Below, in pieces: positions 15,257 through 15,444 of a stretch of 38,735 nt of DNA. Every line of letters starts with the position of its first letter. The stretch's first letter is position 1. The stretch covers positions 1 to 38,735 of the forward strand of contig CAIOTO010000025.1 in the NCBI GenBank assembly GCA_903861255.1. Direction: 5' to 3'. A program made the position numbers and the translations under genes. The stretch comes from an uncultured Alphaproteobacteria bacterium. Lineage in GTDB: Bacteria > Pseudomonadota > Alphaproteobacteria > Paracaedibacterales > CAIOTO01. Below the pieces are notes generated by a model that had not been told where the DNA came from, ran no database searches, and saw only the letters and a list, made by a program, of their open reading frames with translations.

Positions 15257-15274
15257 ATGCTTACACTTGAAAAA
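15257..15274 (+). repeat. 18-nt direct repeat, copy 1 (duplicate of arnD codons 1-6)
   Basis: 'atgcttacacttgaaaaa' is identical to 15427..15444. Confidence 0.9.
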
Positions 15275-15288
15275 CCATCCTCCTCTAT

Positions 15289-15406
15289 GTCATCCCCGGA
15301 CTTGATCCGGGGATCTATAAAATCTCAAAGGCAAATACTAAGTGATAATGAACAAACTGCATGCAATATCAGCAGCAGAGATCGCCGGGTCAAGCCCGGG
15401 GAAGAC
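15289..15406. repeat. MITE-like double-hairpin element, family A (copy A2)
   Basis: Left arm 'gtcatccccggacttgatccggggatct', then a spacer, then right arm 'agatcgccgggtcaagcccggggaagac'. Confidence 0.8.
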
Positions 15407-15426
15407 AAAACTGACGGGTTGGATTA

Positions 15427-15444
15427 ATGCTTACACTTGAAAAA
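15427..15444 (+). repeat. 18-nt direct repeat, copy 2 (authentic arnD codons 1-6)
   Basis: 'atgcttacacttgaaaaa' is identical to 15257..15274. Confidence 0.9.

Follow-up and report, generated by a model that had tools for sequence, protein, structure and literature searches.

An insertion usually duplicates 2-12 bp at its ends, and much longer flanking repeats, of tens to hundreds of bp, are found with IS1634 and IS1549, autonomous elements of the IS4 group. Overlapping stop and start codons (UGAUG, as in trpB-trpA) support bacterial termination-reinitiation without a strong Shine-Dalgarno sequence, and the long hairpins of Correia elements in Neisseria are RNase III substrates. Bacterial MITEs, for example MITEAba12 of Acinetobacter and the Correia elements of Neisseria, have been reviewed (PMC10969869), and some of them carry short ORFs (PMC10969869, section 4.2). 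Rickettsia palindromic elements (RPEs), ~150-bp sequences with an open frame in an intracellular alphaproteobacterium, can reside in genes that tolerate them (PMC10969869).

We examined a 38.7-kb window (the whole stretch of DNA analyzed here; contig CAIOTO010000025.1, assembly GCA_903861255.1) from an uncultured Paracaedibacterales-type alphaproteobacterium, an amoeba-symbiont-type organism that is metagenome-derived only. In this window a 152-nt non-coding palindromic element has landed between codons 6 and 7 of an ArnD-like gene. The features of the locus, in window positions, are:

13919 to 15118, plus strand: upstream gene, UDP-4-keto-pentose/UDP-xylose synthase (ArnA C-terminal-domain-like; NCBIfam NF008872, Pfam Epimerase)
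15152 to 15231, no strand assigned: family C palindromic element, second and unrelated to the 152-nt element (recognized by its sequence, its predicted hairpin and its absence from the related loci L001-L003)
15237 to 15256, plus strand: retained ancestral initiation region AAATAAAGAAACGTAATT (compare AAAAGAAAAATAT-ATG in L001 and GAGAAACAT-ATG in L002)
15257 to 15274, plus strand: first copy of the 18-mer ATGCTTACACTTGAAAAA, an exact duplicate of codons 1-6 of the ArnD-like gene and the start of the upstream ORF
15257 to 15427, plus strand: upstream ORF of 56 codons and a TAA (MLTLEKPSS...DKTDGLD), crossing the whole element
15275 to 15426, no strand assigned: complete inserted element, 152 nt (delimited by one end-to-end hairpin, module homology and the WsnRNA46 alignment)
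15275 to 15288, no strand assigned: left terminal module, 14 nt, the complementary partner of the right module
15289 to 15406, no strand assigned: family-A core (A2), 118 nt, with palindromic arms
15407 to 15426, no strand assigned: right terminal module, 20 nt, with 3 mismatches to the family module
15425 to 15429, plus strand: TAATG stop-start overlap, made up of the final TA of the element and the ATG that opens the second 18-mer
15427 to 15444, plus strand: second copy of the 18-mer, the native codons 1-6, continuous with the gene (from orthology to L001-L003)
15427 to 16341, plus strand: intact ArnD-like deformylase / polysaccharide-deacetylase family gene, 304 aa (PF01522, NF011923)

The upstream gene scores 588 bits against NF008872, above the cut-off of 294. 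The downstream gene had been called arnD in an earlier note on this DNA, and its product indeed carries the Pfam polysaccharide deacetylase domain (PF01522) and aligns over the full length of NF011923 (249.5 bits, E = 4e-74); the score, however, lies below the 382-bit equivalog cut-off, and the gene is therefore best named ArnD-like. The protein is identical in all assemblies that carry the filled site and shares 89% (L001), 82%, 76%, and 73% identity with those of the closest Paracaedibacteraceae/Holosporales-type MAGs. Compared with L001, dN is 0.07 and dS 1.13 (dN/dS about 0.06), and this low ratio together with the intact ORF is consistent with continued function.

The uninterrupted arrangement is found in four related MAGs (L001, L002, L003, and L005), each of which has a single arnD start located 12-18 nt past the stop of the upstream gene, a distance that has grown to 308 nt in the window. 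The proteins of the relatives begin MSSLEKKIVG, MTSLKQKIVG, and MITLKNKIVG, and codons 3-10 of the window gene are orthologous to the starts in L001-L003. Relative to these loci, the window contains two extra pieces, namely the family C element before the first ATG and 170 nt after codon 6. The empty sites thus bear out the insertion that the earlier note had proposed. The same junctions are present in contigs from three samples (ERZ1426846, ERZ18668157, and ERZ27313604), and their identity in three independent assemblies rules out an assembly artefact or chimera. An exact search of JGI metagenomes for the arnD start, aimed at empty alleles of the same species or further copies, gave no matches. 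Two short contigs from two other samples (L081 and L082) have a common end point 142 nt past the arnD stop (window ~16483), and the first base of L081 corresponds to window position 15274, 1 nt ahead of the first base of the element; these common break points are a hint of strain variation to either side.

The family C element has the termini CGTCAT...ATGACG (ends CGTCATCACGAGG...CGCAATGACG) and separates the upstream stop from the first ATG, which are now 138 nt apart. The arnA-like/arnD junction has therefore received two independent element insertions, one of family C and one of family A. Two insertions at one junction suggest relaxed constraint on operon architecture, and the insertion might have crippled expression of a gene that is dispensable in this lineage, so that the intact ORF would reflect recency only. 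The two 18-mers are still identical, which makes the insertion fairly recent, and the score under the ArnD equivalog cut-off also agrees with such a loss. Against it, the ORF is both intact and identical in three samples, the overall dN/dS is about 0.06, and an event whose duplication restores the full ORF and creates a stop-start overlap gives the impression of having been kept by selection; we consider crippled expression quite improbable.

The earlier note correctly placed a family-A element (A2) between the two 18-mers, but it drew the boundaries of the element too narrowly. The arms of the core are 29 nt long and 86% complementary. The 14 and 20 nt on either side of the core are terminal modules and not spacer: the right module, AAAACTGACGGGTTGGAT, is the family module AAAAGTGACGGGTAGCAT with 3 mismatches, and pairing in the insert extends out to its first base. 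The 152 nt are predicted to fold into one hairpin (-61.7 kcal/mol, z = -6.6) that spans the first base to 4 nt short of the last. The insert is shorter than 500 bp and lacks a transposase gene, and its sole ORF is the 56-codon frame, whose 56-aa peptide has no Pfam match and for which no homologues were found. A sequence scan of the element revealed neither a promoter-like site directed at arnD nor a terminator. Like bacterial MITEs, the element is short (152 nt) and multicopy, has terminal inverted repeats and a flanking duplication, carries no transposase and would form a stable hairpin if transcribed. It fits the structural definition of a bacterial MITE, with an autonomous partner not among the window or the fetched loci: no autonomous IS or transposase with matching ends was detected there, and a genome scan with the outer-end pattern was too unspecific. 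Unlike the usual MITE, which lies between genes, this element sits inside the first codons of one.

Elements of the same family are present at other sites. The window holds three family-A copies, A2 and those at ~9079-9204 and ~21371-21496, and at least 11 occur in the related MAG JAZKAK01 (also the source of L002), where the sequence beyond GTCAT...ATGAC is non-random. An ~18-nt module (AAAAGTGACGGGTAGCAT), in direct or reverse-complement form, caps elements that differ in their cores, and the outer ends of the family read (N)ATGCTACCCG...CGGGTAGCAT(N). The build of the family is thus modular, with a core and one or two copies of the ~18-nt outer module, and the element is part of a modular MITE family of Paracaedibacteraceae-type bacteria that had not been described. 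More broadly, it is a member of a "GTCAT-hairpin-GATC" superfamily. Loci with the terminal hairpin motif GTCATnCnCGGrCTTGAyCCGnGnATCT number more than 118 (L083-L200 among the matches listed); taxa among the matches listed include Bosea, Neisseria, Treponema, Rhizobium, Roseovarius, Patescibacteria, and Campylobacter, an unusually wide spread over very distant taxa for one repeat terminus. The internal pattern of family A gave 17 matches in JGI metagenomes, none of them with element termini.

A further parallel is WsnRNA46 (Wolbachia small RNA 46). Its Rfam model (RF02625) aligns over its full length (1-151) to window positions 15278-15420 and to a family-B element at 19593-19731, with scores of 35.4 bits for A2 (E 9e-4) and 32.8 bits for the family-B element (E 5e-3) in a search of the window, both below the gathering threshold of 65.3. 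The elements and WsnRNA46 share a GuGuCAUCC hairpin, GAUCCAGAAAA, a loop and a mirror arm; unlike the Wolbachia RNA, the element studied here sits in an mRNA leader/ORF and is known from sequence alone, in addition to its sub-threshold score. The likeness suggests that the Wolbachia "small RNA" may belong to the same broad repeat class. Elements of many other phyla share the ends of the family, and so do those of Wolbachia, where the annotation is that of a small RNA.

The 18-mer ATGCTTACACTTGAAAAA that flanks the element is, as the earlier note reported, an exact repeat whose second copy is the arnD start. When the 18-mer was searched for with up to 3 mismatches, shuffled sequences gave a mean of 0.14 matches, with 3 matches in none of 100 shuffles. 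No other direct repeat of at least 15 nt is present at a spacing of 60-400 nt within the 38.7-kb window. Both copies directly adjoin the complete palindromic unit and thus behave as a target-site duplication. The canonical duplication of the family is 9 bp long and located 1 nt outside ATGC...GCAT, as seen in three intact copies:

L213: 9-bp duplication CTCAAGCTG, the element being nested in a family-A copy, with the uninterrupted paralogue L216 as the empty site
L222: 9-bp duplication TTTTTTAGC
L223: 9-bp duplication GTAyAGATG

The duplicated target at the ArnD-like gene is therefore unusually long, as had been proposed, with 18 bp against the 9 bp of these intact family members. Among the other copies, L201 also has a long flanking repeat, 16 nt exact (or 17/18), unlike L213, L222, and L223. 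Other candidate repeats were set aside. An 11-mer flanking A1 does not exceed chance (the window has six further 11-12-mers), a 15-mer in L214 and a 14-mer in L005 do not flank elements, and an A-rich 15-mer in L216 (AAAAAATAAGAAAAT), 40-70 nt from the element ends, is ambiguous as a flanking repeat. In exceeding the usual 2-12 bp by a wide margin, the duplication resembles those of IS1634 and IS1549; unlike in those elements, the norm of this family is 9 bp, and long repeats are limited to A2 (18 bp) and L201 (16 bp) instead of being routinely long and variable.

Most simply, the 18-bp duplication would reflect an atypically wide staggered cut, twice the usual 9 bp. The fact that 18 is exactly 2 x 9, in a family with a 9-bp duplication in three copies, could also mean that the repeat did not arise in one step, either by recombination between adjacent 9-bp alleles (U-a-b-E-a-b-D) or with a target that mimics the element end. 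The 16-nt repeat of L201 begins with GTGACG, continuing the terminal module of the element, and the 18-mer is loosely similar to the outer module (ATGC..TTAC..TT.AAAAA). This resemblance is not significant, however, as 5-7% of random 18-mers equal it, and the two-allele model requires two independent insertions 9 bp apart plus recombination, with no allele having a 9-bp duplication in any assembly. We regard an origin in more than one step as improbable. Specifically, use of the 18-mer as a pseudo-end, or derivation of the first copy from the element, was rejected as unsupported: 5-7% of 18-mers that were random, shuffled or began with ATG align as well, and codons 3-6 have orthologous counterparts in the relatives.

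Reading from the first ATG, the 56-codon ORF runs uninterrupted through the entire element (15257..15427), and the A that ends its TAA (15425-15427) is also the first base of the arnD ATG (15427-15429), both exactly as first noted. When the insert was shuffled, the 50-codon frame was open in 6% of cases, and open with a stop at the junction in 0.7%. These values do not take into account that the open frame is a property of the family: in the matching orientation and frame, 7 of 13 family cores are stop-free (2-6 in the other frames), and a stop in the open frame at the outer end of the element is usual for the terminal module. Between A2 and the 126-nt cores the difference is 9 nt, so that the frame is kept at both ends. 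The stop that closes the frame in L223 is the TAG of GGGTAGCAT, whereas A2 has TTG at this position and continues for 6 nt to its TAA. Given a duplication that includes the ATG, we estimated the chance from ~1 in 6 orientation/frame choices and ~0.5 copies with an open frame; an element-spanning ORF ending at or near the duplication is thus expected in about 1/6 to 1/12 of such insertions. The improbability that the earlier note attached to a stop-free frame ending in TAATG is accordingly reduced to the exact TAATG register, which is local and could be luck.

Open frames are thus present in other family-A copies too, but no other copy has the stop-start arrangement. In no other family copy does the open frame stop on a gene start, and none is embedded in a longer gene, and there is thus no sign of a family adapted for coupling; a family built for coupling in general was rejected on the same grounds. 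In the intact copy L223 (5451-5651, minus strand), the outer module ATGCTACCCG supplies an ATG in the open frame of the core, which yields a 58-codon ATG-to-TAG ORF across the entire element (MLPVTFKLTLALSSSDLIRR...), and a GTG-initiated ORF of 431 aa starts 37 nt downstream of this element ORF.

With regard to RPEs, the element is likewise palindromic, ~150 bp long, provided with an open frame and located inside a gene of an intracellular alphaproteobacterium. RPEs, in contrast, insert in frame and join the protein, whereas the ArnD-like protein is unchanged: the 170 added nucleotides are not a multiple of three (170 mod 3 = 2), the frame of the element ends in TAA, and the protein aligns from residue 1 with its orthologues. 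The ArnD-like gene tolerates the insertion because its start is duplicated and not because of a fusion. As the duplicated segment includes the ATG, the element is followed by an arnD ORF that is still complete.

What the second copy of the start lacks is the old initiation context. In the relatives, a purine-rich stretch (GAGAAAC, AAGAAAA) lies 7-14 nt ahead of the arnD start; in the window, the corresponding AAAGAAAC precedes the first 18-mer and not the second. The ancestral stretch has thus stayed with the first ATG and arnD has moved ~170 nt away from it, in agreement with the displacement described in the earlier note. In the predicted mRNA structure, the first ATG and the region upstream are unpaired and the hairpin starts 18 nt downstream, a gap that would just allow a ribosome to initiate. 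The hairpin is followed after 2-3 nt by the second ATG, which is itself unpaired and has no clear Shine-Dalgarno sequence; the region from -3 to -12 (GGGUUGGAU) is predicted to pair with CCAUCCUCC at 15275-15283 in the foot of the hairpin, which comprises only ~8 bp with bulges. On its own, the second ATG thus appears to be poorly placed for initiation.

Insertion of the element duplicated 18 bp, the ATG and the next five codons, and the upstream copy keeps the old initiation region and opens a 56-codon ORF in the one stop-free frame of the family. From these features we propose the following course of events. Ribosomes would initiate on the unstructured RNA of the first ATG, 18 nt before the hairpin, melt the ~150-nt hairpin as they translate, terminate at UAAUG and then reinitiate on arnD. 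Stop-start coupling of the upstream ORF and arnD is plausible, as the earlier note had envisaged. As in the known stop-start systems (UGAUG, trpB-trpA), there is an overlap (UAAUG), no evident Shine-Dalgarno sequence and structured RNA upstream; unlike in trpB-trpA, the upstream cistron is not a conserved gene but an accidental 56-codon ORF made of a duplicated start and a transposon, and the coupling is putative. Overall, an insertion with a wide-stagger 18-bp duplication followed by coupled reinitiation on arnD is the best explanation, to which we give somewhat better than even chances.

The structure of the hairpin foot also bears on another possibility, that arnD is translated independently, by direct loading of 30S subunits at the second ATG (from a standby position while the foot breathes) or after an RNase III cut in the long hairpin that would release its 3' arm, with the upstream ORF and the TAATG being incidental. 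The start codon is unpaired and only ~8 bulged pairs close the foot, which could breathe enough for direct initiation; the relatives also have no strong Shine-Dalgarno sequence before arnD, so initiation in this lineage may not require it; the family passes on both the open frame and the terminal stop; and Correia hairpins in Neisseria offer a precedent for RNase III cleavage. Independent translation has against it that the purine-rich stretch of the relatives has been kept by the first ATG and not the second, that the -3 to -12 region is predicted to be paired, and that there is an exact stop-start overlap, the arrangement best known for coupling. We consider it rather unlikely and favor coupled reinitiation.

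In a stricter form of coupled reinitiation, the accidental upstream ORF would be an obligatory leader, such that only those ribosomes that cross the hairpin reinitiate at UAAUG; we regard this as possible, if doubtful. If true, a MITE would have made a translation-dependent, attenuator-like control point before a lipid-A/LPS-modification gene, and the double-length 18-bp duplication would be what enabled the rescue. If coupling works at all, the locus would be a clean natural example of a gene surviving a transposon in its first codons, in which the duplication regenerates the start and the open frame and terminal stop of the element provide a leader ORF instead of a knockout. It would not add a new category of mechanism, as MITEs, target duplications and stop-start coupling are each already known, and tolerance of a transposon by the gene is here a neat but fairly ordinary case.

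Several minor observations concern the repeats themselves. Besides family A and family C, the window contains family-B elements (TGTCATCCCCGCGAAGGCGGGGATCCAGA...TCTGGATTCCCGCCTGCGCGGGAATGACA) at three places:

19593 to 19731: family-B element, ~110 nt upstream of a tRNA gene (19842-19915)
27012 to 27114: family-B element
36129 to 36231: family-B element

A solo pair of terminal modules without a core (ATGCTACCTTACACGCGGAGGAGGAGGTTTTTAAGAGTGACTGGTAATAT) is located at 12850-12900 on the minus strand, in the intergenic region before the ORF at 13005. This solo module has ACTCTTAAAAA in common (11/11) with the native arnD start of L003 (4001-4020), and for the native arnD start of L002 (4001-4020) the common sequence is CGTCACTT. 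Both starts are closer to the outer module than the 18-mer of the window is, and neither has an insertion there. At the ends of JAZKAK01 elements, half-termini form tandem arrays with a period of ~20-23 nt (for example, AAAAGCTGGTCGAGGATGAC five times, GTCATTCCCGCCTCTTCTTT three times, and AAAAAGGGGAGTCCGAGGATGAC three times), at these sites:

L213: 7290 to 7420
L215: 700 to 810 and 5170 to 5240
L222: 5550 to 5720

Elsewhere in the window, positions 3368-3638 and 3887-4157 form a 271-nt direct repeat with 75% identity and a spacing of 519 nt, which is probably a duplication internal to a gene.
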